A stretch of DNA of 64,000 bases, taken from positions 64,001 to 128,000 of the IMG/VR virus record IMGVR_UViG_3300027791_000007; one strand, 5' to 3'. The notes under the pieces were generated by a model. It was not told where the DNA came from. It did not search any database and worked only from the letters and a program-made list of their open reading frames with translations. The translations under genes and the position numbers were made by a program. Positions 5,694 through 37,233 of the stretch are shown here, piece by piece; the stretch's first letter is position 1, and each line of letters begins with the position of its first letter. This DNA is from a virus.

Positions 5694-5813
5694 TTACTTC
5701 TTTGCAGCCCTCTTGACTACCTTTTTAACTGCCTGAACTGCTTTAGGAGCAGTTGTACGAGCTACTGGAGGCACCATCATTTTGCCTGCTTTTGACATGA
5801 ATCTTAATCCCAT
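5694..5813 (-). CDS. 39-aa basic Lys/Ala/Val-rich peptide MGLRFMSKAGKMMVPPVARTTAPKAVQAVKKVVKRAAKK
   Basis: Translated by hand; SD AAGGAGA upstream; flanked by hairpins. Confidence 0.7.
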   Translation of the reverse strand: MGLRFMSKAGKMMVPPVARTTAPKAVQAVKKVVKRAAKK

Positions 5814-5841
5814 TGTAATCTCCTTTATCTAATATGGGAAA

Positions 5842-5861
5842 TGGGGAGGCGAACCCCCCCA
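5842..5861 (-). terminator. G/C-rich hairpin with UUCG loop
   Basis: Minus strand TGGGGGGG-TTCG-CCTCCCCA just after stop of 5872-6345; weak U tail. Confidence 0.55.
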
Positions 5862-5871
5862 AATCTAATTA

Positions 5872-6345
5872 TTAGTTAGCGATATCAACAAGTCCACTAT
5901 CAGCACCAGCATCATGCTGTCCGATAACGGCCCATGAAGAACCAGTCCACATTAGTATAACAGCATCACCGTCATCAACAAAGTTGATGTCTGCATAACC
6001 CAATGGGTCAGCAGGTGTACATACAGATGTACCACCATCAGTGTCGTTAATGATAACTTTCAACTGACCTACGATAGTTCCATCAGCAATAGTAGTAGCG
6101 TTAGAACCAGCAGTCTGAAGCAAAGTAACAGCAGTTGTTACAGACAATGCAGCCTGTGTACCATCAGAAATATCTTCTACAGAATTTGAAAATCCGATAA
6201 AAGAAGGAAGGTTGTTAATAAAGTTAGTTACACTAACCTTTTTGTTAATAGGTGTTCCAGTTGGATCATCTACAACGTGTAGCAAGTCTGCGCCTGCGAT
6301 GCCTGTTGAAAGGTCAGTCAGTGCAGTAATTTTCTTATCAGCCAT
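5872..6345 (-). CDS. Probable virion structural (fibre/decoration-like) protein
   Basis: MADKKITALT N-terminus common in phage fibre proteins; T/G/D/A-rich; strong SD. Confidence 0.55.
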   Translation of the reverse strand: MADKKITALTDLSTGIAGADLLHVVDDPTGTPINKKVSVTNFINNLPSFIGFSNSVEDISDGTQAALSVTTAVTLLQTAGSNATTIADGTIVGQLKVIINDTDGGTSVCTPADPLGYADINFVDDGDAVILMWTGSSWAVIGQHDAGADSGLVDIAN

Positions 6346-17354: not shown

Positions 17355-17431
17355 TGGCCTGCTCGGTAGGAGTCGAACCTACGACCTATTGCTTAGAAGG
17401 CAATTGCTCTATCCAGCTGAGCTACGAGCAG
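17355..17431 (-). tRNA. tRNA-Arg (anticodon TCT)
   Basis: Cloverleaf: CTGCTCG acceptor stem, TAGCTCAGCTGGATAGAGC D-arm, loop CTTCTAA, GGTTCGACTCC T-arm, encoded CCA. Confidence 0.95.
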
Positions 17432-18865: not shown

Positions 18866-19148
18866 CTATAATTTCTACCAGTATGTCACCGATTTGTTTA
18901 AAAAACACTTCGTCAAACTGGGATTTGTCTAAACCATTATTATCTAATATATCATACTCGAAGCGAAAAGTCAAGTCTTTTTTTTCATCTGGTTCTCCTA
19001 AAGTCACTTTTCCGTATTTGTAAACTACACCTTTATACATTCCAGTATTAATACCAATACAAGTTGTGTCTGGATACTTTGGTGAGTTTAAGTAAACATA
19101 TCTCTTTTGATCAATTTTTATTTTTGCAGTTTCTTGTATATCAGACAT
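18786..19148 (-). CDS. Probable gp40-like head vertex assembly chaperone
   Basis: Position between uvsX and gene 41 as in T4; YKGVVYKYGKV...L.FEYDIL motif. Confidence 0.55.
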   Translation of the reverse strand: MSDIQETAKIKIDQKRYVYLNSPKYPDTTCIGINTGMYKGVVYKYGKVTLGEPDEKKDLTFRFEYDILDNNGLDKSQFDEVFFKQIGDILVEIIDEQAGNNNGTIDQHNRENDIIESNNE

Positions 19149-19689
19149 AATGTAAATAACTCCCCACGATATATTTTGGTGTGTCTATTGGTTTTTGTCC
19201 AGCATGTAACCAAGGCCACATTGGTGGAAATATAAGTAAAGAACCTTTCTTACATGGCGAACCTTTATTCATTAGGGGGAATGTTGTCATACCACCTACA
19301 TTGTCATCTAAGTACAAGAAGAATACTAAAAACCTTCTTGCATTTTCATAGTTGTTTACATCTACATGTGCTCTAAATTCATCTTTATCGTTTGGTAGAT
19401 ATCTTTTCATCCTCAAACCTTCAAGTCCATATTTATTAGGCCACATTTCTTTAGTAATACCAGCTTGCATTTTATAATCAGCAACTCTAGATAGAAGTAT
19501 TTTTTGAAGTTTTTCACTATCTTCTTTCCACTCATCATGCTCGTAAAGATGAATTTGTGTAAAGTCAGCAGTGCTTTGTTTAATATCTTCATAACAATTA
19601 CTACTCTTATCAAACTTTTCTTTTAGATAATTACAGTATTCTTCATCAATGACATTATCATGTCGTTTCACAAAACTCATCAAGTCCAT
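19141..19689 (-). CDS. 2OG-Fe(II) oxygenase (prolyl-4-hydroxylase-like)
   Basis: HVD...YLDD..GG.T.F...LIFPP.W...H.G...K.I. Confidence 0.9.
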   Translation of the reverse strand: MDLMSFVKRHDNVIDEEYCNYLKEKFDKSSNCYEDIKQSTADFTQIHLYEHDEWKEDSEKLQKILLSRVADYKMQAGITKEMWPNKYGLEGLRMKRYLPNDKDEFRAHVDVNNYENARRFLVFFLYLDDNVGGMTTFPLMNKGSPCKKGSLLIFPPMWPWLHAGQKPIDTPKYIVGSYLHYV

Positions 19690-20204
19690 TATATCTTCCT
19701 AACTGTAAAATCTATAGCCATTCTTTTGTGGTCTGTTAGTATATCAGAAGCCGCATGTGGAATTGTAGAATCAAATAATGCAAAAGATGTTGGTTTGATA
19801 TAGTTAGAAACACCATCATGTGTAAAACCACCACCCCAACTTTCTTTCCAATCACTATTCACCACACCCAAGATTTTAATTACATTATCTTGTTTATTAT
19901 GGTCAGTGTGGATATTATCTTTTCGATTTTTATCCTTTATAGACAATCCACAAAAATATATTTCAGGCACAAAGAAATCTTTTCCTCCTGCTTCATATAT
20001 TTGTATTAACAACCCCATTGCAATACCAGCAAGTAGTGGATGTTTAGTGTCATCATTATCTATAATATCTAACTTTAGATGTTTTTCATCCAGCGATTTG
20101 CCCATTGGATATTTTAGATTCCAACTGTCATCGTTAGATGCAACATGTTTAATCATATCTAAGTAGAATGGACTACAACAATTATCTAAAATTTTAACCG
20201 CCAT
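19689..20204 (-). CDS. 2OG-Fe(II) oxygenase
   Basis: HTD...WGGG...FDSTIPHAA...R. Confidence 0.85.
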
Positions 20205-21210
20205 ATTTAAACTCCTTTGAAGCAGCTTCTTCTAGTTTCTCCATAACTTCTTCTGTGAAATATTTCTCTGGATCACCTAAAACAGCTTTACCATATTGTT
20301 TTGTACCATCAGGCATTAAATACCTTGGCCCTTCTTTCTTGAAAACTTCATACTTTTCTGCAAGTTCAATCAATCCGTAATATTTATCTAGTCCAGTACT
20401 ATAACTCAATCTAACATCAACCATTTTGTTTTCAATAGTCAATCTTGATTTGTGATTCTTACAGTGAATAATATTACCGACAACATCTGTACCTTCTTTA
20501 TCTTTTCTTTTAGATAAGAAGATAATTGATGAGGCTGCATACTTCAATCCAGAACCACCACCCATTTCCTTAGTAGGAAACATAGAACCCATAGAGTCAT
20601 ATGTGTGATTTGTTACAATCATTGGGATACCAGCTTTACCAAGTTTCAAAGTCAACACTCTAAATGCAGCCTTAAGAACTTGTGCTCGTGTCATGTCTCT
20701 AGTTTCTTTTCCTGCTTCTGTATCCTCTACTTCCTTTGTAGTAGATAACATACCAAGTGAATCTAAACACATCATCATAGGACGTTTTACATCCACATCT
20801 TGCTGAGAAAATCTATCTGCAATTTTAATCGCTTGTGTTCTAAACTCTTGTACAGTAGTAACTGGCATCATAACCATCCTAGTTGGGTCAATACCCCTAT
20901 CAACTACCATCTGTTTAGTAATAGCACTTTCTGATTCAAAGTAAACTACACCACCATCTGGATTTGCATCCAAAAAGTTCTTTACCATTCCCATCAAAAA
21001 GAATGTCTTACCAGTTGCACTTTCACCAGCAAGAGCAGTAATTTTGTTTGCAGGCAATCCACCATACAAACTACCACTCAATAGTGCATTGAAAATGTAA
21101 CTACCAGTATCTACAAAGTTTTCTACGTCACCAGCGGCAACACCATCGGATACTAAATCAGCATACTCATTTCCAGTTATTTTAATTATGTCTTTTAAAA
21201 AATCATTCAT
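20194..21210 (-). CDS. uvsX: RecA-like recombinase UvsX
   Basis: [37 protein letters not shown]. Confidence 0.97.
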
Positions 21211-21583
21211 AAATCACTCCTTCTAAATTAGGTTCTTCATAATTTGGGCCTTTCATGACCTTACCATCTTTTCGATACATGGGTTGACCATCTTCACCTA
21301 ATTTTGTCATATTAGATCGTTGAACCTCATCAAAACATTTGTCTAAGTCTAATCCAAATGTATGTCCAGCACCATAAACGACATATAAAATATCAGTTAA
21401 TGCATCTGCCACATCTACAAGTGTACCACTTTCGCAAGCTTCTTCTAGTTCATTCAGTTCTTCTCGTATTAAATCAATCCTCAAATCCACTTCTTCATCT
21501 GTTGGCCATTGAGGATTTTCTCGTATTTTCTGCTTGAAAGCAGACATAAAGTTTTCGACTTTGTTAAAGTTTGTTTGATTCAT
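21203..21583 (-). CDS. MazG-superfamily (all-alpha) NTP pyrophosphohydrolase
   Basis: LIREELNEL...[11 protein letters not shown]...[25 protein letters not shown]. Confidence 0.9.
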
Positions 21584-21589
21584 TTGTAG

Positions 21590-21618
21590 ATCCTATCATA
21601 ATTAGCGTTGTTTGTCAA
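21590..21618 (-). promoter_or_regulatory. Sigma70-type promoter TTGACA-17-TAGGAT (with extended TG)
   Basis: Consensus -35 and 17-nt spacer upstream of MazG-like gene/uvsX. Confidence 0.6.
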
Positions 21619-22421
21619 GTAAAAAATTCACTTAATGTTGCAACTCCGTGTTTGTCTGCAACTTTATTTACATTACTAGAGTTGTGGTTTGTTACAGTAC
21701 CATCTATAAATGGTAGTGTCTTTGTGAGAGTATATTTTTCTTCGCCTGGTTTCTTTATTTTCCATTGTAAATCAACATCTTTGGGATAATTGATATTCCA
21801 ATCCATAGTGGACTGTTTAAGATACTTCTTAGCCTTTTTATTTAGTGGGTAAATATATCTAAATTGTTTACCCCATACTCTACTAAATCCTAATTCACCC
21901 ATCTTCTTATCACTTGGTCTTGGGCCATACTTAGTATCCATACGATTCATTTCTTTTTTCATCTTTCTTTGGATAGTTCTGAAATGTACCTTTTCACCAG
22001 TTTCACTCAAATATATATCTGTCCAGATGAACCCACCAAATAAGAAGTTAGCGGCCTGATAAACATATCCTGGCTTACCAACAATTCCATCTGCCCATGT
22101 GTAAAGATATTTTATATTAGGTTTATTTTCTTTCAACCATTTAATAGTTAAACTCTGCATTTGTGATTCTGAATTTCTGGGCATCTTATCATCCATACAC
22201 ATCTTACCTATTTCAAAATAATCAGCAGTTGTTAACTCTGGAAACATCTTTCTTATTGTTCCCATAGGGTTCGTACCCCAACCCAAAGTTAGAACACCAA
22301 CCAATTCTTCATCTACATATGTACCAAGATAATGTTTAGTTAGTTTGGGCATCACAGCACTATAGTGTCGTTCTTGAACGAATAGTGTTGCAACTCTCCA
22401 ATCTATAGGTTTAATTATCAC
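21615..22421 (-). CDS. Mom-family GNAT DNA-modifying acyltransferase (adenine methylcarbamoylation-like)
   Basis: IKPI...FVQERHYS, LVGVLTLG, EIGKMC, PRNSES, YTWADG...GYVYQAANF: hallmark Mom-family motifs. Confidence 0.8.
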   Translation of the reverse strand: MIIKPIDWRVATLFVQERHYSAVMPKLTKHYLGTYVDEELVGVLTLGWGTNPMGTIRKMFPELTTADYFEIGKMCMDDKMPRNSESQMQSLTIKWLKENKPNIKYLYTWADGIVGKPGYVYQAANFLFGGFIWTDIYLSETGEKVHFRTIQRKMKKEMNRMDTKYGPRPSDKKMGELGFSRVWGKQFRYIYPLNKKAKKYLKQSTMDWNINYPKDVDLQWKIKKPGEEKYTLTKTLPFIDGTVTNHNSSNVNKVADKHGVATLSEFFT

Positions 22422-22861
22422 CCCTTATGTCTCCTCAAATAAGCGGCTCCCGCTTCTAAAACTTCTGGACGATCTAGTGAACGTCCTATCATAATATTAC
22501 AATAGTCACAGATATATTCTCTTGGTGTTTCAGTTTCATGGTCATGATCTAACACCCAAACAGTTTTTGATGTTGCAGACGATAATCCTTGAAATGCACC
22601 TCTACCTCTGATATATTCTTCATTGTCATTACAAATACCACACTTATGATCCGACTCTGGTTTAGCTATTTCTTTTCTAACTTTATTAAGAATTTTTGTT
22701 TGGTGATTATTACACACTTTACAAATATTCTTAGTTTCTCTTGAACCATCTTTTCTGTGTCCTCTGTTTGCAAAGAGGTCTAAATGTTTTACCTCTTTAC
22801 AAGAATAACACATCTTTGTATGCTCAACTTCTTCTGGGCCCCATAATGTTTGAATAATCAT
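22418..22861 (-). CDS. Endonuclease VII-family (His-Me) endonuclease with N-terminal Zn ribbon
   Basis: CYSC...CKVC, CGIC, VLDHDHET...R.YICDYCN..IG. Confidence 0.85.
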   Translation of the reverse strand: MIIQTLWGPEEVEHTKMCYSCKEVKHLDLFANRGHRKDGSRETKNICKVCNNHQTKILNKVRKEIAKPESDHKCGICNDNEEYIRGRGAFQGLSSATSKTVWVLDHDHETETPREYICDYCNIMIGRSLDRPEVLEAGAAYLRRHKG

Positions 22862-23625
22862 ATTGGTAACTTTCCAACTTGACTATCTGTATACATTTTC
22901 TTCCACTTGATTTTAATCTTCTTGAAATCTCCACCCATAACATTCTCTTTAATGCCATTCCATGATACATGGTTAGGATACATCTCAATAAGTTTTGCAT
23001 GAGTATCATTAATTAAATCTAAAGTTCTCCATTCGTTACATCCACCCTCAACTAGAATCTTAGAAATATAACCAAACTCATCCCATATACGATTTGTATG
23101 TCCTTTTTCAAACAACTGTAATACCATATGAATATCTTCACATACTGGTAATGACCAATCTAGTTTTGTCTCATCAGGCATTTTATTACCATTGAAAAAG
23201 AAACCACAGTTTACAGCAGCGATATCAATAAATGGTTTTCCTGCTGGTGGTAGATTACCTTGACGAAAACCAGCGAAATCAACTTCATCTAACCATCGAC
23301 TAGTTTCTGATAACATATAATCCCAATCCTTAGCGTCCATAAATCTTTTAGATTTTTCTTTACCAGGCGTTCTACGAATGAATTTTAAGTCATCGTCAAA
23401 CACTCCGTATTTGATATTCATAGATTTCATATATATCCAGCGCCTAGTCTCCGTGATCCCAATATCATCATCAGGCAAAACCATTATGGGATAATTTGGG
23501 TATAAATGTTTTTCCTTCGGTTGCACTACAAGAGTAGTAATAGATTGTGTAGGGCCTGACAAATTATCAAAAGTAATTTGGTTGTGAGATCGGCCTAAGG
23601 TCGGTATATAAATCTGATCTATCAT
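22858..23625 (-). CDS. GT-A glycosyltransferase of the TET-associated/T-even beta-glucosyl-HMC glucosyltransferase type
   Basis: IYIPTLGR, GITETRRWI, FDDDL (DxD), EDIHMVLQL, GGC motifs. Confidence 0.75.
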   Translation of the reverse strand: MIDQIYIPTLGRSHNQITFDNLSGPTQSITTLVVQPKEKHLYPNYPIMVLPDDDIGITETRRWIYMKSMNIKYGVFDDDLKFIRRTPGKEKSKRFMDAKDWDYMLSETSRWLDEVDFAGFRQGNLPPAGKPFIDIAAVNCGFFFNGNKMPDETKLDWSLPVCEDIHMVLQLFEKGHTNRIWDEFGYISKILVEGGCNEWRTLDLINDTHAKLIEMYPNHVSWNGIKENVMGGDFKKIKIKWKKMYTDSQVGKLPI

Positions 23626-24608
23626 ATCGCAGTGTCCATTCTATTTGTAAATTCGTGATAGTAAGCGTCCAGAGATAACAATACTTGTTTGTAGTTGTTT
23701 CTATATTCTTCTAACTTACTGTTAAAGAAATCTTCATCTCTTAATTGTAAAATCTTTTCTTCTAGTTCTTCAAACTCTTGTACTCGTTGCCATTCATCAA
23801 TTCTGTATGTATTATTCTTATCATAGTCTCTCCATACAAATGGCACCATTCCAATTGAAAGTGCTTCTGGATACCTACTAGTTGTGGCATATGGGTCAAT
23901 CCAGTTAAAACAAAGTGTACTTCTTGCTGGTTCTAACATTGGATATAATTGTTTCCAATCTTTAATCCATGCGGCTTGTCGTTTTACCCCACTAGGAAAA
24001 CCACCCACCATTACAGTAGATAGTTGTGAACGATAGATTTTACGAATTGTTTTCTCTCTATCGTTACCATGTTTCATACGACCCCAGTAGGCCCAATCAA
24101 CAGTTTTACCTTCACTCATCATATCATAAAGAGGATTTTTTAAAGTCTGAATAAAATGATATTTCATACCGTGGATATTTCCACTAAAATCTATTTCATC
24201 TATCGTAGTAAATCTTGTAATTGTAGTACCCTTTAAAGTATGCACTCTATACAACTCTTCTGTGTCACCCCTATCTGAACGAAACATAATCACCTTTTTA
24301 TCTCTAAAGAACGGGCGAATAGTTTCCATATGACTTTCAGACTTTGCAAGGTCTTTTGGATTCATCTGTAACTCACCATGATACCTAAACTCTGAATCAC
24401 TAGGTATGACAATTACATCGGCCCACTCAATATTCTCTGGTGTTCGTTTGGGTCTACTTTCATCAAACGATACGTTATATGTTCTGTATTCATGTTGTGG
24501 GTTTGCTTTCATCCACTTGACATAGTTTTCAAAGAAACTATCTAGGACAGTTTCTAATGGGCCATTATACTTTACGTTACTTCGTAATCTTGCAATTGTT
24601 ATTTTCAT
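23622..24608 (-). CDS. DNA beta-glucosyltransferase-like GT-B enzyme
   Basis: Aligns by eye to T4 BGT: KTVDWAYWGRMKHGNDRE vs KTLDVIYGGSFRSGQRE; TSRYPEALS...RDYDK vs TLRVWETMA...EEFDT; syntenic with T4 bgt. Confidence 0.7.
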   Translation of the reverse strand: MKITIARLRSNVKYNGPLETVLDSFFENYVKWMKANPQHEYRTYNVSFDESRPKRTPENIEWADVIVIPSDSEFRYHGELQMNPKDLAKSESHMETIRPFFRDKKVIMFRSDRGDTEELYRVHTLKGTTITRFTTIDEIDFSGNIHGMKYHFIQTLKNPLYDMMSEGKTVDWAYWGRMKHGNDREKTIRKIYRSQLSTVMVGGFPSGVKRQAAWIKDWKQLYPMLEPARSTLCFNWIDPYATTSRYPEALSIGMVPFVWRDYDKNNTYRIDEWQRVQEFEELEEKILQLRDEDFFNSKLEEYRNNYKQVLLSLDAYYHEFTNRMDTAI

Positions 24609-25819
24609 TACATATCTTCTAAAGAGTTTTTGATCTTATATTCTAATGAAATCACCTCTACATTAAAACCCTTAGGCGCAATCCAAAACTCAATGTCATC
24701 CATCACCTTAGGCAACCACTTCTTGTTCCACTCTTGCATGGTCTTCCAATTGGGATGGGTGATGTAAATAGTTGCATACTTCTTCTTTGACTTTGCCTTT
24801 ACAAGTAACTTTAACTCATCTTGTAACGAATGTAAGTTAAACTTTCCAGATGAAGCGTGCATTGAAATTGAATCCTTATCAGTAGCATTTTCAAGAATAG
24901 TAGCTAATTCAGACTTGTATAGTGACCACTTCTTCCAAATCCAACCATCAGGCAACTTATCATTTAGAGTAATCGTTGTCTGTGCCTTATTGATAATCCA
25001 GTTGATTTGTCTTGTGCTCCAATTCATATCTTCCAAGTATTTAATATTATCTGTTGAGTCGGCCGGAACACCTTTCTTATTAAATGCAGCAACAATCCAT
25101 GCTACTTGGTCGTCTGGATGACCAACCTTTGTAGCCTTTTTCTGCTGAGGATTTAACAGATTAGCAAGAATTTGTAACTGTGTGACATCAAACTGATTCC
25201 AAATCTTCTTTGAGATATACATAACTGGCACCTTAATTACATGAGAAACCCTCTTTGCGGCCGCAGTAGTGTGATTACCATCAAGAATGATATCATCACC
25301 ATTCTTTCCATATCCCTTTAATACAATAATTGGATCAAAACTATCAATCTTTCCATGTAAGTCAATCATAGCATCTGCAAGAACTCCAACATGATTAGTG
25401 TCAGTATTTTCTACCCTTGTCTGATACCTCGCAAGTTCAGTAATTATTGACTTCTCAATCAACTCAATAGGTAATTCCTTAGTCTTAATCATTTGAGATA
25501 ATTCCCTCAATTCTAAATTCTTACCTACTGTCTTGAGGTACTTACCACCACCATTTGACTTGTTGTAGTATTCTTCATTGTTGTTCGCATCTACTTCTAA
25601 TAACATATTTCTCTCCAATGTCGCCATATTAATTTTAGTTCCTTGTTTCACAATCTTGTATTCATTATCACCCTCAGCAAAATCTTCCATGAAAATAGGA
25701 CACTTACTTGAATGAATATAATTAGAAATAGTTTCTCCTTTTTTTAAAACATGATAACCAATATACTTCTTTCCAGTTCCATTAACTGTGATTTCGTAAA
25801 CATAAGCTTCTTGATTCAT
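24608..25819 (-). CDS. GIY-YIG endonuclease domain fused to ParB/Srx-like domain
   Basis: AYVYEIT...KKYIGYH...E...YYN (GIY-YIG); DPIIVL...ILDGNHT..A (ParB-N-like). Confidence 0.7.
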   Translation of the reverse strand: MNQEAYVYEITVNGTGKKYIGYHVLKKGETISNYIHSSKCPIFMEDFAEGDNEYKIVKQGTKINMATLERNMLLEVDANNNEEYYNKSNGGGKYLKTVGKNLELRELSQMIKTKELPIELIEKSIITELARYQTRVENTDTNHVGVLADAMIDLHGKIDSFDPIIVLKGYGKNGDDIILDGNHTTAAAKRVSHVIKVPVMYISKKIWNQFDVTQLQILANLLNPQQKKATKVGHPDDQVAWIVAAFNKKGVPADSTDNIKYLEDMNWSTRQINWIINKAQTTITLNDKLPDGWIWKKWSLYKSELATILENATDKDSISMHASSGKFNLHSLQDELKLLVKAKSKKKYATIYITHPNWKTMQEWNKKWLPKVMDDIEFWIAPKGFNVEVISLEYKIKNSLEDM

Positions 25820-25851
25820 ATTTTTTCTTTCTCTTGATTGTTTATACTAAT

Positions 25852-25880
25852 AGTATAACAGCCAAAAGTGCATTTGTCAA
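25852..25880 (-). promoter_or_regulatory. Sigma70-type promoter TTGACA-17-TATACT
   Basis: Near-perfect consensus with extended TG, heading the GIY-YIG/GT/GT/endoVII/Mom run. Confidence 0.8.
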
Positions 25881-25953
25881 GTAGGGCAAAAATCTCCAGT
25901 AAAAACAAAGACTTAAATTTAACGTAAAATTTGTGTTTTAGCACAACTGCGAA

Positions 25954-27066
25954 TCACCTTATTATATCAATCTTATCCATAGTATCTTTATTCCAGACTT
26001 CAAGTTCTTTTCTTAACTTGTCCTCTCTAATCATTTTAGTGTATCTTTTAGTAGAAAGCTTCTTCCACCACTGTACTACATTTTCAAGTTCAAATCTATC
26101 ATAGTTTTCTGCTTTTGTCAAGGTATTTGTTTCACCTAGTAAAACATTTCTTGCATTTTCATATCCATATGTTGACATATAAAATCTTTTCTGTGTGGTC
26201 ACTTCTCCTGCTTTATTCATTGCATCTGTAAATAACTGATAGGCCTTTGAGTCATGTTGTTTTAATGATGCCTTAACCGTTCCCACCATCTTGGTCTGCA
26301 TCTTTAACTTTCTTGAACTTGCACCTTTATGTATTAGGTCTTCACCACCGTTTCTTTCAGTAAACCAATCTCTCATCTCCATATAGATTTCTTCTCCAAG
26401 TGTCAATAGAAACTTAGATTGAGTATCACCTTTGTATCTTAGATATGGGCGCATACCATCATACATACTACCACCTTTGATATTACCATAAAGACTTGTA
26501 GTTTCAAATAGACAGAACTTTGTATTATACTTCTTATTCAACATACGTCTAGTTGCATGAGAACAACAAATAGCTGCAAGTAACTTACCACCAAGATAAT
26601 TATACCCAAATGGTTGTGCAGGCACAATATTAAATCCCATGATAGCACGTTTGTTAAAGATATCTAAATCTGGAACACCACCAAGAAAATCATTTCTAGG
26701 TTTAGAGTTAATTAGTGGACTACCATAACGTATAAATCCTACAATAGTATTTGTAGTTGTTTCCTTAACAACTAGTTTCAAAGTCTTGCCTGGGTTTTCA
26801 TCTGGACTGAATGATGCAGTCTTTTCTAATAGTGTATCATATACCTTGTTTGGTATTTCTACAACTTGAAAGTTCATATCCTCTGGATGCATATCAAAGT
26901 CTTGAAACAAATCATCTTCAATTGACATGCCAGGCAGTGGTGACGGAATATCTTTAACTCTTTCAATCTTTCTTACACGAAAGTAATCATCAATGCGATT
27001 AAAATCTTTGAAGTATTTCATCAATTTTGTAGCAGCGTATATTGAGTCTTGTCTGTCTAGTATCAT
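25954..27066 (-). CDS. DUF4338 / Druantia DruA-like GNAT-fold protein
   Basis: VGFIRYGSP, IVPAQPFGYNYLGGKLLA, FETTSLYG motifs recalled from the DUF4338/DruA family. Confidence 0.7.
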   Translation of the reverse strand: MILDRQDSIYAATKLMKYFKDFNRIDDYFRVRKIERVKDIPSPLPGMSIEDDLFQDFDMHPEDMNFQVVEIPNKVYDTLLEKTASFSPDENPGKTLKLVVKETTTNTIVGFIRYGSPLINSKPRNDFLGGVPDLDIFNKRAIMGFNIVPAQPFGYNYLGGKLLAAICCSHATRRMLNKKYNTKFCLFETTSLYGNIKGGSMYDGMRPYLRYKGDTQSKFLLTLGEEIYMEMRDWFTERNGGEDLIHKGASSRKLKMQTKMVGTVKASLKQHDSKAYQLFTDAMNKAGEVTTQKRFYMSTYGYENARNVLLGETNTLTKAENYDRFELENVVQWWKKLSTKRYTKMIREDKLRKELEVWNKDTMDKIDIIR

Positions 27067-29549
27067 AGAAAATCCATTAAGTTACCTTGTTGGCCATATG
27101 TGCGATCCACTGTCCATTTAAGTTTGGACACAATAAAGTTTAGTGGTTCAACAAATGACTTTTCAAATTGTTGTTCATAATCAATCATACTCTGTAATCC
27201 AAACTCATCAGGCATTTTTGTAATGAATGAAATAGAACTTGATTGGTGAGCATTTGGTATTCGTAAGTGCAAGAATTTAATCTTATCCCCTTCTTGAATG
27301 TATGGGTATTTGTTTACTAGTTTCTTTTGTTTGAGAAGATGGTTGTATAGAATTGCTCCCTTACAATGAATAGGGGCTCCTTTAGCAAATAGGGAACTAG
27401 GATCACTCCATTTCGTCAAACCGTTTACACTTCTAGGATATGCAATCATCTCTGCTGGCATGTTCATAAACTCTTCTCTAAAGTCTCGTATAAACTTATT
27501 TAGCATTTTCTCATCACCACTCATGATGATTTTCAAACCTTCTTTAATTTTGTTTCTACAAGGTTCTGGCGTAGAAGATTTTACTGCTTCAATACCCATA
27601 ATCTTTAGTTTAGGTTCTTGATAACGAACACCCTCATTATCCCACACATTAAGAATATATCGTTTCTTAGCAGTCCATATACCCTTGTCAGCGATGACTT
27701 CTCTTGACATCTCCATCTTCTGTTGGTATGCTTTCATGTAAGTAGCGAGTTCTTCATAACATGAACTGATATATGGTTCTATCTTATCCTTTGCAATGCT
27801 GTCTAGAAAATCAATTGGACTAGATGGATTAAACTTTTCTACCAAAGAACCGAATGTAACATAGATGGAATCTGTATCAGAAGCAACCACATAATCTTGA
27901 TTATCAGTTTTGAGTAAATTGTTCATATAACTATTAATCTTGTTTTCAATCCAACGAATAGATAATTGTCCAGAAGTTGTAACAGCCTCTGCCATTGCAA
28001 GGGAGTAGTATCTGAAATACTGATTACCGATAGCACCATAAGCACTGTTCAATGCAATCTTTCTTGCCATCTGAATATTATCATACTTAGAAATCTTTTT
28101 AAGTAGTTTTGGTTCTTTGGTATCTTCATATTCTTGTTTTGCCTGTAACATCTTCTTCTTGAATACGACACGATCATTGTACATGTTTTCCATCAACTCT
28201 GGAAGAAAACCTTTTGTATCTGTTCTGAACAATGCACCGTTTGGTGTCATAGTGGTATCTTTGAAAATAGATGTATCAACTTCCTTGTTTAGAAGTTTGT
28301 CCACCTTCATACCTTTTACCGTATCCAGAGATTTTAATGTTTCTGGGGAAATATTATATTGCATCATTAAGTGTGGATACAAAGAGTTCAAGTCAAAAGA
28401 CATAATCCATTTATGTTCACCGACTATAGGGTCTTTGACATATGCACCCTCAAACTTCTCTGCCTTTTCTGAATGACGTTTCTGTGGAATTACAATATTC
28501 TTTTTCTTTAGATAATTGTAAATCAGAACATCCCAATATTTAACCGAACCAAGAACATCCATGTAATTAACTTTGGCTTCATATGCCATAGTCAAACACA
28601 ATTCAATAAGTCTCATCTTATCTTCAATACGATCAACTAGTTCCACATCAAGAATGTTATAGTCAATAAAAGATTGAAAGTCTTTTGTATACCACTCACT
28701 GAAAGTTTCATATGGATTTGTATCTTTCTTTTGTCCAAGTTCTACATATGCGATATGAGTAAGTGCATATGACTCTTGACTTGTGTATGTAAACTTGTGA
28801 TATAAGTCCAAGTAATCCAAGTGAGCAACACCTCTAATATCGTAGAGTTGATGATTCCTACCATTTCTGAAAACTTCTTTATCTTGAACCATACGCCATG
28901 GTGATAATCTTTTTAGTTCATCCTCACCAAACAAGTTCTTCATACGATTACATAGATAAGGAATATCAAAAAATTCTGTATTCCAACCAGTGATAATATC
29001 TGGTGGGCTGTTTTCCCAAAAGATAAGAAACTCTTTAAGTAAATGTATTTCACTCTCACATTCAATGTAAGTTACATCGTCACGACTATTAGTATATTTA
29101 CCAACACCCCAAACAATAATTTGTTTGTTAGAATGGTTCTTTAAAGTAATTGATAGAAAAGGTTCTGCAGCCTCTTGTGGATTAGGAAACCCATTCTCAC
29201 ATTTAACCTCAATGTCAATAGTGTATATTAGAATCTGATCTAAATCCCAATTGACATCATTAGGATATTCTTCTGAAAGATAAGTATATGGATATTGGTT
29301 TAACCCCAATACCAACGATTTTTGATTCTCGTATGATTTTTGCCACTCTTTCGCATCTTTGATATTATCAAATTTGATTGGGGCAGCATTCTTGCCAGTA
29401 AGAGTTTTGAAACCGCTTACCTTTTCGCAGGGCGTGTACAAAGTTGGTTGGTATTTAACCTTACGAACTTGTCGTTTGCCGTTTACAACTTCTCTTAGAA
29501 AAAGTTGGTTTCCCCACTGTAAAATATTTGTGTAAAAGTTTATCATCAT
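27063..29549 (-). CDS. gp43: Family B DNA polymerase gp43
   Basis: DIEV exo I, GWNTEFFDIPY, SFDLNSLYP, KIALNSAYG, SDTDS, KKRY. Confidence 0.98.
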   Translation of the reverse strand: MMINFYTNILQWGNQLFLREVVNGKRQVRKVKYQPTLYTPCEKVSGFKTLTGKNAAPIKFDNIKDAKEWQKSYENQKSLVLGLNQYPYTYLSEEYPNDVNWDLDQILIYTIDIEVKCENGFPNPQEAAEPFLSITLKNHSNKQIIVWGVGKYTNSRDDVTYIECESEIHLLKEFLIFWENSPPDIITGWNTEFFDIPYLCNRMKNLFGEDELKRLSPWRMVQDKEVFRNGRNHQLYDIRGVAHLDYLDLYHKFTYTSQESYALTHIAYVELGQKKDTNPYETFSEWYTKDFQSFIDYNILDVELVDRIEDKMRLIELCLTMAYEAKVNYMDVLGSVKYWDVLIYNYLKKKNIVIPQKRHSEKAEKFEGAYVKDPIVGEHKWIMSFDLNSLYPHLMMQYNISPETLKSLDTVKGMKVDKLLNKEVDTSIFKDTTMTPNGALFRTDTKGFLPELMENMYNDRVVFKKKMLQAKQEYEDTKEPKLLKKISKYDNIQMARKIALNSAYGAIGNQYFRYYSLAMAEAVTTSGQLSIRWIENKINSYMNNLLKTDNQDYVVASDTDSIYVTFGSLVEKFNPSSPIDFLDSIAKDKIEPYISSCYEELATYMKAYQQKMEMSREVIADKGIWTAKKRYILNVWDNEGVRYQEPKLKIMGIEAVKSSTPEPCRNKIKEGLKIIMSGDEKMLNKFIRDFREEFMNMPAEMIAYPRSVNGLTKWSDPSSLFAKGAPIHCKGAILYNHLLKQKKLVNKYPYIQEGDKIKFLHLRIPNAHQSSSISFITKMPDEFGLQSMIDYEQQFEKSFVEPLNFIVSKLKWTVDRTYGQQGNLMDFL

Positions 29550-29554
29550 GTTCC

Positions 29555-29583
29555 ATTGTATAGTAAATTGTTGGCATTGTCAA
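29555..29583 (-). promoter_or_regulatory. Sigma70-type promoter TTGACA-17-TACAAT
   Basis: Directly upstream of gp43. Confidence 0.75.
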
Positions 29584-29588
29584 GTCTT

Positions 29589-29837
29589 TTATTCAAATAA
29601 TTCTATTTGTTTTTTCTTGTTAACTGGTTTCATTGGGAAATAAATATTAATCATTTCTAGTCTATCATGTGCGGCAGATAGTTTATCTAGTTCAGCCATA
29701 ACTGCTTCTGTTACATCTGAATGCTCTCCAATTCCTGCCGGCATTGTTTGATACACTGCAATATTTGCCTTGTGAACTTCAATTTGTCCTTCTGCATGTT
29801 TTTTTGCAGCAAAAATAATTTGTTCGCCTACTTTCAT
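29589..29837 (-). CDS. Conserved small T4-like marine phage protein
   Basis: HAEGQI..HKANI.VY...PAGIGEHSD motif. Confidence 0.7.
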   Translation of the reverse strand: MKVGEQIIFAAKKHAEGQIEVHKANIAVYQTMPAGIGEHSDVTEAVMAELDKLSAAHDRLEMINIYFPMKPVNKKKQIELFE

Positions 29838-31306
29838 TTTGTACTCCTTTTATTGAGTTTTTGGGGTAAATCGTCCTCATCTGTTTTATCGCCTCTTTCA
29901 ATCCAATCGGATAGAACGAATCTCCTATTTGGATTGACACTTACTTGAAACAAAGTCATAATATCTCTGTTAGCAAGAAAAGTACTTCTTGAATCTTTTT
30001 CAGTAAGTCCTATTGGTACATCTAAATATTTTCTATTATTAAATGTTATGTTTACGTTAACAATAGGTCTTTCATCTATTTTTCCAACATGTTCTGGTTT
30101 GGAAACACCTTGTAAGGCACTTGTAAATTTCTTTCCGTCTTTTTCCCACTTAACTGTTCTGCCGTTAATATCTACTTTGTCAACAACAAACATTGATGCA
30201 TGTGTTCCATTTCCAGTATCGAACTTTGCTCTTAGTGGGCCGTAACCATCTATTTCAATTCTTTCTACATATCCAGATTCAGTAGGAAATGAATGTCTAC
30301 GATTATTTGGTATCATAATAAACTCTAATAACTTTTCTACAATCTTAGATGGATTTGCATCACCAATATATGCATTGTTGTCTGATTCTGTATCAGTAGC
30401 ATCATACAATGCAAAATTAGAACCAATACCAGCAGAACCATTACACTCTAAAACGTAAACATCTCCACTTACAATAGCATGGTCAACACCAACAACATAT
30501 GCACCAACTGAACGAGATGCCCTTAGAATCACTTCTCTTTCTCTATCATTCAATTTATATGGTTCTGTTGTAGCACCTCTATGTCTATTAGACCTAAAAT
30601 CTTTCTTTGCAGAAATCCTCTTTGTTGATGCTAGTATTTTACCACCAACTACAATTGTTCTTATATCACTATCGAATTTAAAATATTCTTGAATTAAAAG
30701 TTCAGCACCAAATTTCCATAATGACTGAACATTAGAAACTAAACTCTCGTAATCTTTAGCAATAGAAACACCAATACCTTGTGTACCAGTAATTGTTTTA
30801 ATGATAACTGGAAACTTACCACCAATTCTTTTTAATCCATCTTCTAGAGACTTTTCATTTGAAACTATTGATGTTCTAGGAGTCGGTATACTGTTTCTTT
30901 CAAAAGATAAGAACGCTGACATTTTATTATCACATGTCAACATACCTTCTCTATTGTTAATCATAAACGAACCAGACTTCTCAAAAGATGTTAGTAGTGC
31001 GAGTCCGATTTCATCTTCTAAAACTCCAGCACGAACAAAACACACAGTCTTTCTAGTGTTAAATTCTACATCATTATCGTTACCATCAAAATTAGATACT
31101 GTTATTATTCCAGTTTCTAAATCATTAGCAGCGATCCATGCATCTCTAACATTAATGATGTGACATTTAATATTACGTTTTTCGCAAGCTTTCTGTAAAA
31201 GATTGCTTACTAGTTCTGGTTTTTTAGATTTAACTTTGGTTAGAATTGCTACTTCAATATCAGTGTCAACTTTGGCCTCAGTAAAAAAATCGGCAAATTT
31301 TTCCAT
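29834..31306 (-). CDS. RimK-family ATP-grasp ligase fused to RimK-associated retropepsin-like (DTG) protease
   Basis: DNKM, PVIIKTITGTQGIGV, IQEY, DIR, DFRSN, GVD, LECNGSAG; C-terminal RAKFDTGN...ERP.V. Confidence 0.9.
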   Translation of the reverse strand: MEKFADFFTEAKVDTDIEVAILTKVKSKKPELVSNLLQKACEKRNIKCHIINVRDAWIAANDLETGIITVSNFDGNDNDVEFNTRKTVCFVRAGVLEDEIGLALLTSFEKSGSFMINNREGMLTCDNKMSAFLSFERNSIPTPRTSIVSNEKSLEDGLKRIGGKFPVIIKTITGTQGIGVSIAKDYESLVSNVQSLWKFGAELLIQEYFKFDSDIRTIVVGGKILASTKRISAKKDFRSNRHRGATTEPYKLNDREREVILRASRSVGAYVVGVDHAIVSGDVYVLECNGSAGIGSNFALYDATDTESDNNAYIGDANPSKIVEKLLEFIMIPNNRRHSFPTESGYVERIEIDGYGPLRAKFDTGNGTHASMFVVDKVDINGRTVKWEKDGKKFTSALQGVSKPEHVGKIDERPIVNVNITFNNRKYLDVPIGLTEKDSRSTFLANRDIMTLFQVSVNPNRRFVLSDWIERGDKTDEDDLPQKLNKRSTK

Positions 31307-34575: not shown

Positions 34576-35544
34576 CTAAGACCTCCGTAGTGTTTTAATA
34601 TATTTTGATTGATCTTCTGGACTAGTGATACCCAATTTCTTTAATGTAAGTTTATCAACTACATTAATATTTGCAGAAAATGTTCTACGTTCACCTTCAC
34701 CAAAAAATGGCATTACGGAATGTCTTAACCAATTAGGGAATATATACATAGCCCCAACTTCTGGTTTAACATATTCGTCTGTAGCAGGTCTAAGAATCTT
34801 AGTATCTGCCCTTCCATTATTACCCCATGAGAAATAAGTGAAACCATCAACACCACCAGAATTATTATTCAAGTTGACTTGATCTCCACTAACCTTTTTC
34901 TCAATCGCCTCTGGAACTTTTAGATACAGAATACACGACAACCCATAAGGTGTAGCAACACCGTGGTCGTGTAAAGGATTATAATCTCCAGAGTAACTAT
35001 GAACTGACCATGCTTCAAATGTATCTACTTCTGCATCAACTTCATGTCCATTCTTTAAATAAGTTCTTGCACACTGGTCGATAATAGTTTTTACTTGTGA
35101 TGGTATAGAAAGAGTCTCTGGTGTTTCTGGTTCATGAGTAATTGGAAAGACAAGTTGTGCTGATTTATTATCTTGTTTGATTTGTCCTACAAGTCCACCG
35201 GCCAAACTATTGTTTGCAGTTGTATTACCAGCAGTTTCACCAAATGATTCGTCTTGTGTTACAATAGTTTCATCAATGTATCTATTAATTTCAGTTATAG
35301 CATCAACTGGAATTTCTACTCGCATCATATGTAGTGCAAGTTTAGTTTTCATAGAAATTCTTAAACCAGAATTTTTCTGTGTATGTTCTTCATCAGCATC
35401 AGCCATAGCCTGTCCATCTTCAATTGCTTTTTCAGCATCTGTTTTAGGAATTGGTTCGTTTGAAGTCCAATGATTTTTGTCTGTTTTTGCGACACCACCG
35501 TCTTTGAATTGGTCTGGTGCAACATCAAATGTTTTTAAACCCAT
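34576..35544 (-). CDS. Putative 2OG-Fe(II) oxygenase (HxH type)
   Basis: WSV....GDYNPLHDH, SCILYLKVP, IFPNWLRHSVMPF..ERRTFSAN. Confidence 0.8.
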   Translation of the reverse strand: MGLKTFDVAPDQFKDGGVAKTDKNHWTSNEPIPKTDAEKAIEDGQAMADADEEHTQKNSGLRISMKTKLALHMMRVEIPVDAITEINRYIDETIVTQDESFGETAGNTTANNSLAGGLVGQIKQDNKSAQLVFPITHEPETPETLSIPSQVKTIIDQCARTYLKNGHEVDAEVDTFEAWSVHSYSGDYNPLHDHGVATPYGLSCILYLKVPEAIEKKVSGDQVNLNNNSGGVDGFTYFSWGNNGRADTKILRPATDEYVKPEVGAMYIFPNWLRHSVMPFFGEGERRTFSANINVVDKLTLKKLGITSPEDQSKYIKTLRRS

Positions 35545-35974: not shown

Positions 35975-36047
35975 TGGAGCGGGCAGATGGAATTGAACCA
36001 CCTTCTTCAATTTGGAAATTGACATAATACCTTTATACGATGCCCGC
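35975..36047 (-). tRNA. tRNA-Gly (anticodon TCC)
   Basis: GCGGGCA/TGCCCGC acceptor stem, anticodon loop TTTCCAA, GGTTCAATTCC T-arm, T discriminator plus CCA. Confidence 0.92.
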
Positions 36048-36054
36048 ATTTTTC

Positions 36055-37233
36055 CTAGAATGATGGTTCTTCTTCATCATCACTATCCATATCAGATAAC
36101 ATATTATCCAATTCAGTTTCGTTGTTAGTAGAATCAATCTCGATTCCACTGTCAATTTTGGTGTACAAGTCCATGAAAGAGTCTTTGGTCTCTTCATCGA
36201 ATCTTGCAACACAAAGTTCGATAGACTTCATCTTGTCATTGAAAATGGCAAATGCCTTTACAATGTGGTCTAACCTTCTGGTCGAAATCACTTCATCGAC
36301 TCCACCGTCAAAGAAAGTCTTTCTGATAACCTCGGCCCACTTGACAAGATTATCTGCAAACACTTCATCAACAGTTCCATACTTTTTCATAGAACCGATA
36401 ACAATCTTCTTTTCGGTTTTTGTGGTAGCGTATGGTTGTTCAATAGTGATTGCAAATCTTTCGAGGAAGGCCTCATTCAATACGTTAGTACCAATAAATC
36501 TACCGTCATCAGAACCTTTACCTTTAGTGTTAGCAGTCGCCATCACATTAAAACCAGTTTTAGGAGTAATCCACTTGTTTACTTTTTTCAAGTAAACACC
36601 TTTACCCTCAAGAACTGGTTGGAGTGCAAGTAACTTGTTTGAACCCAAATCACACTCATCAAGCAAAAGAGTACAACCTCTTTGCATGGCCTCAATGACT
36701 GGCCCAGGAACAAACTTAGTTTCTCCATTCACCAATCTGAAACCACCAAGTAAATCATCTTCATCAGTTTCGATTGTGATGTTCACTCTGATCAATTCTT
36801 TTTTCATCTCAGCGTGAATCTGTTCAATCATCAATGTTTTACCATTACCAGATAATCCAGTAACAAATATTGGATAGAACAAACCAGACTTTACAATCTG
36901 TTTGATTGTAGTGTAATGACCCCAAGGTACGAAACCTACAAATGTCTCTGGAACTAAATTTTGTTTTTCCATATTTGTTGCAACTAAATTCATAACAGTA
37001 TTCTCCACTGGAGCAGTAGTATTAACTTGAACTGTCTCAGCAACATACAAATCTTCATTAGGAAGTTTGAACTGATTATAACCAGTTTTACACTGACCTA
37101 GAAACCAACCAGCAAGTGGTAGTTCTAGTTTTTCACAAACCTCTTTTACTTGAGTCTTGTTTAGAATAGAACCAGCACCGAATTGTTCAGATGCAGAATC
37201 TACAAACTTCTGTTTTCTTGGACTTAAATACAT
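36055..37233 (-). CDS. CobS-like MoxR-family AAA+ ATPase
   Basis: GLSGNGKT, DEDDLLGG, LLLDE, TANTKGKG, NEAFLERF, ISTRRL. Confidence 0.93.
   Translation of the reverse strand: MYLSPRKQKFVDSASEQFGAGSILNKTQVKEVCEKLELPLAGWFLGQCKTGYNQFKLPNEDLYVAETVQVNTTAPVENTVMNLVATNMEKQNLVPETFVGFVPWGHYTTIKQIVKSGLFYPIFVTGLSGNGKTLMIEQIHAEMKKELIRVNITIETDEDDLLGGFRLVNGETKFVPGPVIEAMQRGCTLLLDECDLGSNKLLALQPVLEGKGVYLKKVNKWITPKTGFNVMATANTKGKGSDDGRFIGTNVLNEAFLERFAITIEQPYATTKTEKKIVIGSMKKYGTVDEVFADNLVKWAEVIRKTFFDGGVDEVISTRRLDHIVKAFAIFNDKMKSIELCVARFDEETKDSFMDLYTKIDSGIEIDSTNNETELDNMLSDMDSDDEEEPSF

Follow-up and report, generated by a model that had tools for sequence, protein, structure and literature searches.

A DruA-like and BGT-like gene pair in a modular, very likely DNA-modifying locus without a hydroxymethylase in a marine T4-like phage

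Genes of the gp43-uvsX interval

Seven open reading frames (ORFs), all on the minus strand, lie between the DNA polymerase gene gp43 and the recombinase gene uvsX in a 64,000-nucleotide stretch of viral DNA, referred to here as the window, which corresponds to bases 64001-128000 of a 148,443-bp IMG/VR virus record (G000, CheckV completeness estimate 84%). In the direction of reading they encode a DruA/DUF4338-like protein, a multidomain protein with a GIY-YIG endonuclease domain (p403), a glycosyltransferase resembling T4 BGT (p328), a second glycosyltransferase of the TET-associated glycosyltransferase (TAGT) family, a small endoVII-type nuclease, a Mom-family protein and a MazG-like pyrophosphohydrolase (Table 1). 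The interval is very likely a DNA-modification locus that is modular and works without a hydroxymethylase. Its robust and novel part is the pair formed by the DruA-like and BGT-like genes, while the Mom-like gene represents an already known kind of single-enzyme modifier.

The source is an uncultured marine T4-like myophage, whose nearest isolate is Pelagibacter phage HTVC008M (Kyanoviridae), a cultured phage with a complete genome. An initial annotation, made from the sequence alone, had proposed the ORFs and their family affinities; all seven are where it placed them and every gene identification holds. The overlapping stop/start codons that it described are real as well, with overlaps of 4 nt for gp43/DruA-like, p328/TAGT, TAGT/endoVII and endoVII/Mom, 1 nt for p403/p328 and 8 nt for MazG/uvsX. 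It also placed most of these genes behind one strong sigma70 promoter. The corresponding TTGACA-17-TATACT site does exist, in the 134-nt gap preceding p403, but the region has 47 promoter-like matches against 48 expected from shuffled sequence, which leaves the position of the site as its only support. An Rfam scan of positions 19000-30500 gave no RNA family within the island.

The metagenomic evidence consists of contigs from short-read sequencing runs. Independent contigs from other studies bridge uvsX to p328 and p328 to the DruA-like gene, hence the island is not an assembly artefact, and the whole arrangement of the island recurs nearly identical in metagenomes from at least 12 studies. 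Contigs from RNA libraries cover the Mom-TAGT stretch of a relative only and do not demonstrate transcription, and a megablast of the island against cultured phages gave no match. For comparison, 80 IMG/VR loci were fetched, each encoding a p328 relative at 72-99% identity, and the neighbouring genes were clustered. The comparison covered 78 p328-bearing loci and two near-complete relatives, G001 (95% complete) and G002.

Table 1. Features of the gp43-uvsX interval and its context, in window positions.
Feature	Position	Strand	Supporting matches
gp43 DNA polymerase (context)	27063..29549	-	Pfam DNA_pol_B 9e-31, phrog_262
DruA/DUF4338-like protein, 370 aa, putative GNAT-type transferase	25954..27066	-	Pfam DruA E 1e-4, 22 bits; phrog_19197 6e-155
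sigma70-like promoter match, TTGACA-17-TATACT with TG extension, 11/12	25852..25880	-	consensus match only
p403, 403 aa: Seg-like GIY-YIG endonuclease domain, ParB/sulfiredoxin-like, helical and C-terminal alpha/beta domains	24608..25819	-	
p328, BGT-like GT-B glycosyltransferase, 328 aa	23622..24608	-	
TAGT-family GT-A glycosyltransferase, 255 aa, candidate second-sugar transferase	22858..23625	-	PF20691 5e-15; phrog_842 1.2e-20
EndoVII/HNH-type small nuclease, 147 aa	22418..22861	-	PF02945 8.5e-11, phrog_2633
Mom-family GNAT, 268 aa	21615..22421	-	PF25680 7.7e-51
MazG/PRA-PH-like nucleotide pyrophosphohydrolase, 126 aa	21203..21583	-	PF01503 2e-22, phrog_671
UvsX recombinase (context, downstream boundary)	20194..21210	-	phrog_97 1.8e-93
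tRNA-Gly-like gene, outside island coordinates	35975..36047	-	Rfam tRNA 48 bits; ARAGORN 'tRNA-??? (cc)'

Linkage of the DruA-like and BGT-like genes

Among the 62 loci that extend at least 1.6 kb upstream of p328, the DruA-like gene is found within 700 nt upstream of p328 in 52, abutting or overlapping it in 32 of those. Dereplication of p328 at 95% identity leaves 30 clusters, in 23 of which the two genes are adjacent, with a separation of 1-2.6 kb in most of the others. What precedes the pair varies, with about ten different genes upstream of it, among them gp43, an AhpC-like gene and a PD-(D/E)XK nuclease gene. G001 carries the pair only, with none of TAGT, Mom, endoVII, p403 or the MazG type of the window; G002 has no TAGT, endoVII, Mom or window-type MazG either. 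HTVC008M carries both core genes, 15 kb apart (DruA-like gp122 and BGT-like gp104), and has neither Mom nor TAGT; in about 25 cyanophages the DruA-like gene is present and no p328 relative was found. p328 is thus nearly always accompanied by a DruA-like gene while the reverse does not hold, which is the pattern expected if p328 acts on the product of the DruA-like enzyme.

The remaining genes come and go. TAGT is present in about 20 of the 78 loci, Mom in three and the window type of MazG in four; the complete gene set is restricted to L003 and L009, with which L010 agrees as far as its contig extends. In other loci a cytidylyltransferase-like gene separates the two core genes (23 loci, e.g. 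L078:7609-8004), or the pair has a GT4 glycosyltransferase (nine loci, e.g. L014:10528-11580) or an NAD-dependent epimerase/dehydratase (five loci, e.g. L047:5588-6535) beside it. Together with TAGT, these variable neighbours point to sugar chemistry, with lineage-specific sugar donors.

Concerning the position of the pair, the gene order in T4 is 43, imm.1, imm, 42, b-gt, segA, uvsX, 40, 41, and that in L009 is gp43, DruA-like, BGT-like, Seg-like p403, TAGT, endoVII, Mom, MazG, uvsX, gp41. The comparison puts the BGT-like and Seg-like genes at the positions of T4 b-gt and segA, and the DruA-like gene at that of gene 42, which encodes dCMP hydroxymethylase. The placement of the island at the T4 bgt/gene 42 locus by the initial annotation thus agrees with the 42/bgt/segA slot.

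The BGT-like glycosyltransferase p328

The AlphaFold2 model of p328 (predicted local distance difference test score, pLDDT, 94) displays a two-domain GT-B fold closest to BGT, and its top structural matches in the PDB are T4 AGT and BGT only, ahead of all other GT-B enzymes. The family profile gives BGT as its sole significant PDB match (1bgt, E 6.6e-4), and an hhalign comparison with T4 b-gt yields an E-value of 6.3e-5 and a probability of 65%. With phmmer, neither p328 nor p403 had a meaningful match in the PDB. The nucleotide-sugar-binding motif is also kept: in the segment that the profile aligns to BGT 'ITLRVWE', all 41 sequences share E248, and at least 90% of them have T243 and R245. 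The corresponding motif of the BGT C-terminal domain is T-x-R-x-x-E around R269/E272. As judged from its profile matches and its predicted structure, p328 is a true relative of the T4 DNA glucosyltransferase. Complex prediction for the DruA-like protein and p328 returned a score of 0.02, which gives no verdict and is evidence neither way.

The DruA-like protein

The DruA-like protein is 54% identical to HTVC008M gp122 and has homologs in about 25 cyanophages, for which structural similarity to DruA has been reported (Phold preprint, 10.1101/2025.08.05.668817). Scores against the Pfam DruA model are 30-39 bits for four orthologs and rise to 76 bits for a G002 paralog. Across two DruA-like subfamilies that are only 22-24% identical, 37 positions are invariant, including motif-like blocks, which indicates that the protein is an enzyme. 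According to the initial annotation two GNATs flank the two glycosyltransferases, a reading that is tentative for the DruA-like protein: DUF4338 has been described as a GNAT domain by Aravind and co-workers (PMC10853773), but a sequence link between the DruA-like family and Mom was not detectable. Two further observations may serve as leads only: one depositor annotated a DruA-like homolog as 'methylcarbamoylase mom', and on visual inspection the stretch Q-P-F-G-x-N-Y-L-G-G-K-L looks similar to GNAT motif A. A Mom-like fold could not be confirmed. In the literature we found no paper on the function of DruA or on DNA modification in pelagimyophages, and a preprint on YprA/Druantia is silent on DruA itself.

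The paralog in G002 (L094:14089-15369, minus strand, 426 aa, Pfam DruA 3e-21) is located directly after gp41, with a tRNA-Thr(UGU) gene about 200 nt downstream. It belongs to a family of 425-aa type that passes the Pfam DruA cut-off and comprises more than 4000 clusters in marine data. A protein search with this paralog returned close relatives alone and did not broaden the profile.

tRNA-Gly-like genes

Just after a CobS/MoxR-like AAA ATPase gene (36055-37233), the window encodes a tRNA-Gly-like gene that has all the bacterial tRNA-Gly identity elements (G1-C72, C2-G71, G3-C70, U73, C35 C36) and encodes its CCA end; ARAGORN cannot name it because the anticodon loop lacks one base. HTVC008M has an unannotated tRNA-Gly(ACC) at L001:606-679, likewise after a CobS/MoxR-like gene. 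Of the related loci searched, 22 have a match to a covariance model (R1) built from 12 tRNA-Gly-like sequences, on the strand of the DruA-like gene, and in 17 of these loci the match lies 2-630 nt from that gene. A further match, of 52 bits, is found in Methylophilales phage Melnitz about 930 nt upstream of its mom homolog (L083:5997-6070, plus strand), inside an annotated hypothetical coding sequence. This linkage supports, short of proof, the idea that the DruA-like protein, the Mom-like protein or both work in a tRNA-dependent manner.

Two side observations belong here. In Melnitz, record positions 5697-6089 additionally match Tet_JBP above the cut-off, and the window has a normal tRNA-Arg(UCU) gene directly after gp41 (17355-17431, minus strand), a layout repeated in L009.

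Absence of a hydroxymethyl-pyrimidine route

The initial annotation had noted no thymidylate-synthase-like hydroxymethylase and called for a search of the rest of the genome. Models for Thymidylat_synt (PF00303), Tet_JBP (PF12851) and C5 DNA_methylase (PF00145) have no match in the whole 148,443-bp record, in agreement with that observation. No ThyA-like gene was found in G001-G005, and neither ThyA-like nor TET/JBP genes were found in the HTVC008M genome, which holds both core genes; since that genome is complete, the missing route is not due to an incomplete contig. G001 likewise lacks TET/JBP genes, and a C5-methyltransferase is missing from both G001 and HTVC008M. Two genes of the 2-oxoglutarate-Fe(II) oxygenase family flank the region (19141-19689 and 34576-35544, both minus strand), with no Tet_JBP match in either.

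Several restriction-type palindromes are strongly avoided in the whole record with respect to Markov expectation, namely GAATTC (0 found, 34 expected), GGWCC (2 and 55), CCGG (15 and 54), GATC (213 and 574) and TCGA (124 and 259). This avoidance suggests that restriction pressure on the DNA continues.

The Mom-like protein

The Mom-like protein is a clear member of its family, with 173 bits to PF25680 for a cut-off of 27, and it is 31% identical to Mu Mom, with a C-terminal extension of about 40 aa. Its family profile matches the Mu Mom crystal structure 8bv8 with an E-value of 5e-25, and the catalytic S124 of Mu Mom is conserved as S86. Silva et al. (Nat Commun 2026) reported that Mu Mom alone moves glycine from Gly-tRNA(Gly), and not an acyl group from acyl-CoA, onto N6-adenine in double-stranded DNA, where the glycyl group rearranges to 6-NcmdA (PMC13219725). 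Melnitz encodes a homolog 80% identical to the window protein with none of the other island genes nearby, and it was not among the matches of the DruA-like and p328 homolog searches. Both the autonomy of Mom in Mu and its occurrence in Melnitz argue that Mom is an independent module and not a glycosylation step. From its sequence and by analogy with Mu, the Mom-like protein is probably an autonomous N6-adenine modifier that uses aminoacyl-tRNA.

TAGT, nucleases and MazG

TAGT scores 56.4 bits against PF20691 (gathering threshold 27.5) and also matches phrog_842, the beta-glucosyl-HMC-alpha-glucosyltransferase (HMC, hydroxymethylcytosine) group, while being about 26% identical to its nearest homologs in cultured phages. 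The genomic partners of such enzymes, TET/JBP or a hydroxymethylcytosine (hmC) pathway, have no match in the 148-kb record under the three models named above.

The N-terminal domain of p403 has a GIY-YIG fold with the conserved Tyr, Tyr, Glu and Asn and is Seg-like; the second domain has a ParB/Srx fold. In I-TevI, the catalytic Arg is R27, after the YIG motif. In the p403 family, by contrast, the N-terminal domain lacks an invariant Arg and mostly has K in an 'H-KG' motif, and T4 SegA likewise has no Arg in the stretch aligned to that motif. The GxxR Arg box is also missing from the second domain, where the motif reads G-G-N-H-(S/T), with G181 invariant and N182 in at least 90% of 18 sequences. 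Genes of p403 type are present in 27 loci at 24-67% identity, and in the lineage of the window the gene has moved across p328 and shares 45% identity with the copy of the closest relatives, against 82-98% for the flanking genes. This hypervariability, the change of position, the similarity to SegA and the locus fit a free-standing mobile endonuclease. The initial annotation had instead suggested that the nucleases might discriminate unmodified DNA. Modified DNA is left intact by the GIY-YIG nuclease EndoII of T4, but for p403 the Seg-like homology, the position and the hypervariability favour a mobile endonuclease over an EndoII analogue that degrades host DNA, and the observations fit a mobile endonuclease at least as well as a nuclease that senses modification. 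Judged on homology and position, p403 is most simply a Seg-type mobile endonuclease at the T4 segA position.

endoVII is restricted to L003, L009 and L010 and is absent from L027, where TAGT abuts Mom. From this distribution, the endoVII-like nuclease and the MazG-like gene are probably sporadic accessories. Just upstream of gp43, at 29834-31306 on the minus strand, lies a gene for a RimK-like ATP-grasp enzyme.

A proposed scheme and its alternatives

On balance, and with moderate confidence, we read the gp43-uvsX interval as a mosaic in which two or more DNA-modification modules, independent of each other, are combined with mobile or accessory genes. In the first module, the DruA-like enzyme would create or present an acceptor group on DNA after replication, possibly using glycine on the phage tRNA-Gly-like RNA by analogy with Mom, and the BGT-like enzyme would then glycosylate this acceptor from a nucleotide sugar. 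In the phage of the window, TAGT would extend the sugar, as in T2/T6. The module would thereby stand in for the absent hydroxymethyl-pyrimidine route. In the second, the Mom-like protein alone would move an aminoacyl group (glycine in Mu) from a charged tRNA to N6-adenine in double-stranded DNA. The gene identities, the folds of p328 and p403, the synteny, the linkage and the absence of known hydroxymethylases are established by the data, whereas we infer DNA as the target of the first module, the order of its reactions and its use of tRNA. The earlier proposal of DNA modification is plausible, and no known hydroxymethyl-pyrimidine route is present; its integration into one pathway did not stand, as only the core pair is kept together.

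In a more specific form of the first module, the DruA-like protein would be a Mom-type tRNA-dependent transferase that attaches glycine, delivered by the tRNA-Gly-like RNA of the phage, to a base in DNA. The product would be glycosylated by the BGT-like enzyme and extended by TAGT, GT4 or other enzymes with nucleotide sugars made by the phage. The glycyl or carbamoylmethyl group is, in this case, chemically like the side chain of asparagine. This version is tentative, and we regard it as unlikely in its full detail.

Several results weigh against the two-module scheme or parts of it. The DruA-like protein of the window scores under the 27-bit cut-off of Pfam DruA, hhalign comparison of its family with the Mom family gave a probability below 1% with two alignments, and searches of its profiles against the PDB returned nothing relevant. 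PF09198 is matched by none of the 41 members of the p328 family (p328 and 40 homologs), and p328 itself has no Pfam family at all. In the window p403 intervenes between the two core genes, and the tRNA-Gly-like gene is 9 kb away from the DruA-like gene; G001 has the pair and no tRNA-Gly-like gene detected by R1, so the tRNA would not be obligatory. The strong palindrome avoidance is not predicted by a global protective hypermodification, and modification may therefore be partial or sequence-specific. Concerning the Mom-like protein, Mu R111 corresponds to K73, an invariant Lys in the marine Mom family, and R151 to I113, which shares its Gly-rich loop with K116, three residues further along; in Mu Mom, R111, S124 and R151 are essential and R111K is strongly impaired (PMC13219725). 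Donor or target may differ from those in Mu: as read from the alignment, fold and nucleophile are kept and specificity may differ.

Among the alternatives, a mosaic in a hyperplastic region, in which the glycosyltransferases decorate a target other than DNA (such as a protein of the virion, part of the host envelope or a small molecule), the DruA-like protein (amino)acylates the same substrate and the Mom-like protein alone acts on DNA, survives best, although we consider it somewhat unlikely. T4-like phages are known to have a hot spot for insertions between gp43 and uvsX, and this explanation would account for the highly variable gene content among close relatives, for the envelope-glycan-type sugar-nucleotide genes nearby in relatives and for the lack of a hydroxymethyl acceptor route; it also suits the palindrome avoidance, which suggests DNA still exposed to restriction. 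tRNA-dependent GNATs such as FemX, furthermore, have non-DNA targets (PMC13219725). It is harder to reconcile with p328, whose closest structures are the only two DNA glucosyltransferases of that fold and whose family profile matches BGT alone in the PDB. The gene order identical to T4 42-bgt-segA, the coupling of the genes to DNA polymerase within the replication module and the known role of the TAGT family in DNA sugar extension also speak for a DNA target.

The initial annotation had combined all seven genes into a single pathway that makes a disaccharide-bearing and/or acylated base, with nucleases that police unmodified DNA and MazG cleaning the nucleotide pool. Such an operon finds a basis in the stop/start overlaps that join p403, p328, TAGT, endoVII and Mom, in the recurrence of the arrangement across studies with its bridging contigs, and in the precedent of T4 EndoII. 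The comparative data nevertheless make it improbable, since the 78 loci and the two near-complete relatives keep only the DruA-like and BGT-like genes together: the full set is confined to L003 and L009 (and to L010 up to its contig end), Mom and the MazG type are rare, and G001 and G002 dispense with TAGT, endoVII, Mom and the window MazG. Moreover, Mom is self-sufficient in Mu (PMC13219725) and occurs apart from the other island genes in Melnitz, endoVII is missing in L027, and p403 is divergent and differently placed in the closest relatives despite the similarity of its flanks. A role of the DruA-like protein in counter-defence, as a mimic or decoy of the Druantia type I component and linked to the glycosyltransferase only incidentally, through shared early expression, is suggested by its family-level Pfam DruA membership and by the reported similarity of the cyanophage homologs to DruA (10.1101/2025.08.05.668817), but is highly improbable given the 37 invariant positions, which point to catalysis, the tight linkage to glycosyltransferase and tRNA-Gly-like genes, and the finding of no other Druantia component by PADLOC among the neighbouring genes.

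Comparison with known systems

A close parallel to the proposed two-module locus is the T4 42/b-gt/segA region, in which a ThyA-fold hydroxymethylase occupies the place that the DUF4338/DruA-like protein holds in the window, where there is no route to hmC or hydroxymethyluracil. p328 does not reach the family of T4 b-gt (PF09198, GT63), and the Seg-like protein differs from T4 SegA in bearing an added ParB/Srx-like domain. In T2 and T6, the beta-glucosyl-HMC-alpha-glucosyltransferase adds a second glucose, and the TAGT of the window likewise follows a first, BGT-like, glycosyltransferase. Other TET-associated glycosyltransferases (PF20691) differ in their setting, as the window genome has no TET/JBP or hmC route. 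For base J of kinetoplastids, the JBP1/2 hydroxylase makes the acceptor on DNA post-replicatively and JGT glucosylates it. The proposed first module would share this logic of acceptor first and glucosylation second, whereas the enzymes are unrelated and no JBP/TET-type dioxygenase was detected in the window phage.

The DruA-like protein shares family-level sequence membership with DruA of Druantia type I (PF14236). Druantia is however a druABCDE operon, while the gene in the window is located beside DNA polymerase, has no DruB-E partners and is accompanied by glycosyltransferase and tRNA-Gly-like genes. As for Mom, the Mu protein belongs to a transposable phage and that of the window to a lytic T4-like one; the latter probably also stands alone, as in Mu (PMC13219725).

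Significance

Ocean phages of very high abundance have conserved a relative of the T4 DNA glucosyltransferase, which is represented by hundreds of protein clusters, in at least 12 studies and in the cultured HTVC008M. Until now, to our knowledge, the glycosylation of phage DNA has been linked to hydroxymethyl-pyrimidines produced by ThyA-like or TET/JBP enzymes. Here the glucosyltransferase relative is paired with a DUF4338/DruA enzyme instead of a hydroxymethylase, and solving the chemistry of this pair could reveal a new class of DNA bases; the phage probably makes DNA bases that have not been described. If the tentative tRNA-dependent version were true, it would amount to an aminoacyl-then-glycosyl hypermodification free of hydroxymethyl-pyrimidine and widespread in SAR11-type ocean myophages, with a hint at the role of DruA in Druantia. 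More generally, the locus could give a first biochemical handle on Druantia DruA and could explain sequencing and restriction biases in marine viromes, and its Mom-like gene widens the range of the recently described tRNA-dependent modification of adenine to include lytic T4-like phages of the sea.

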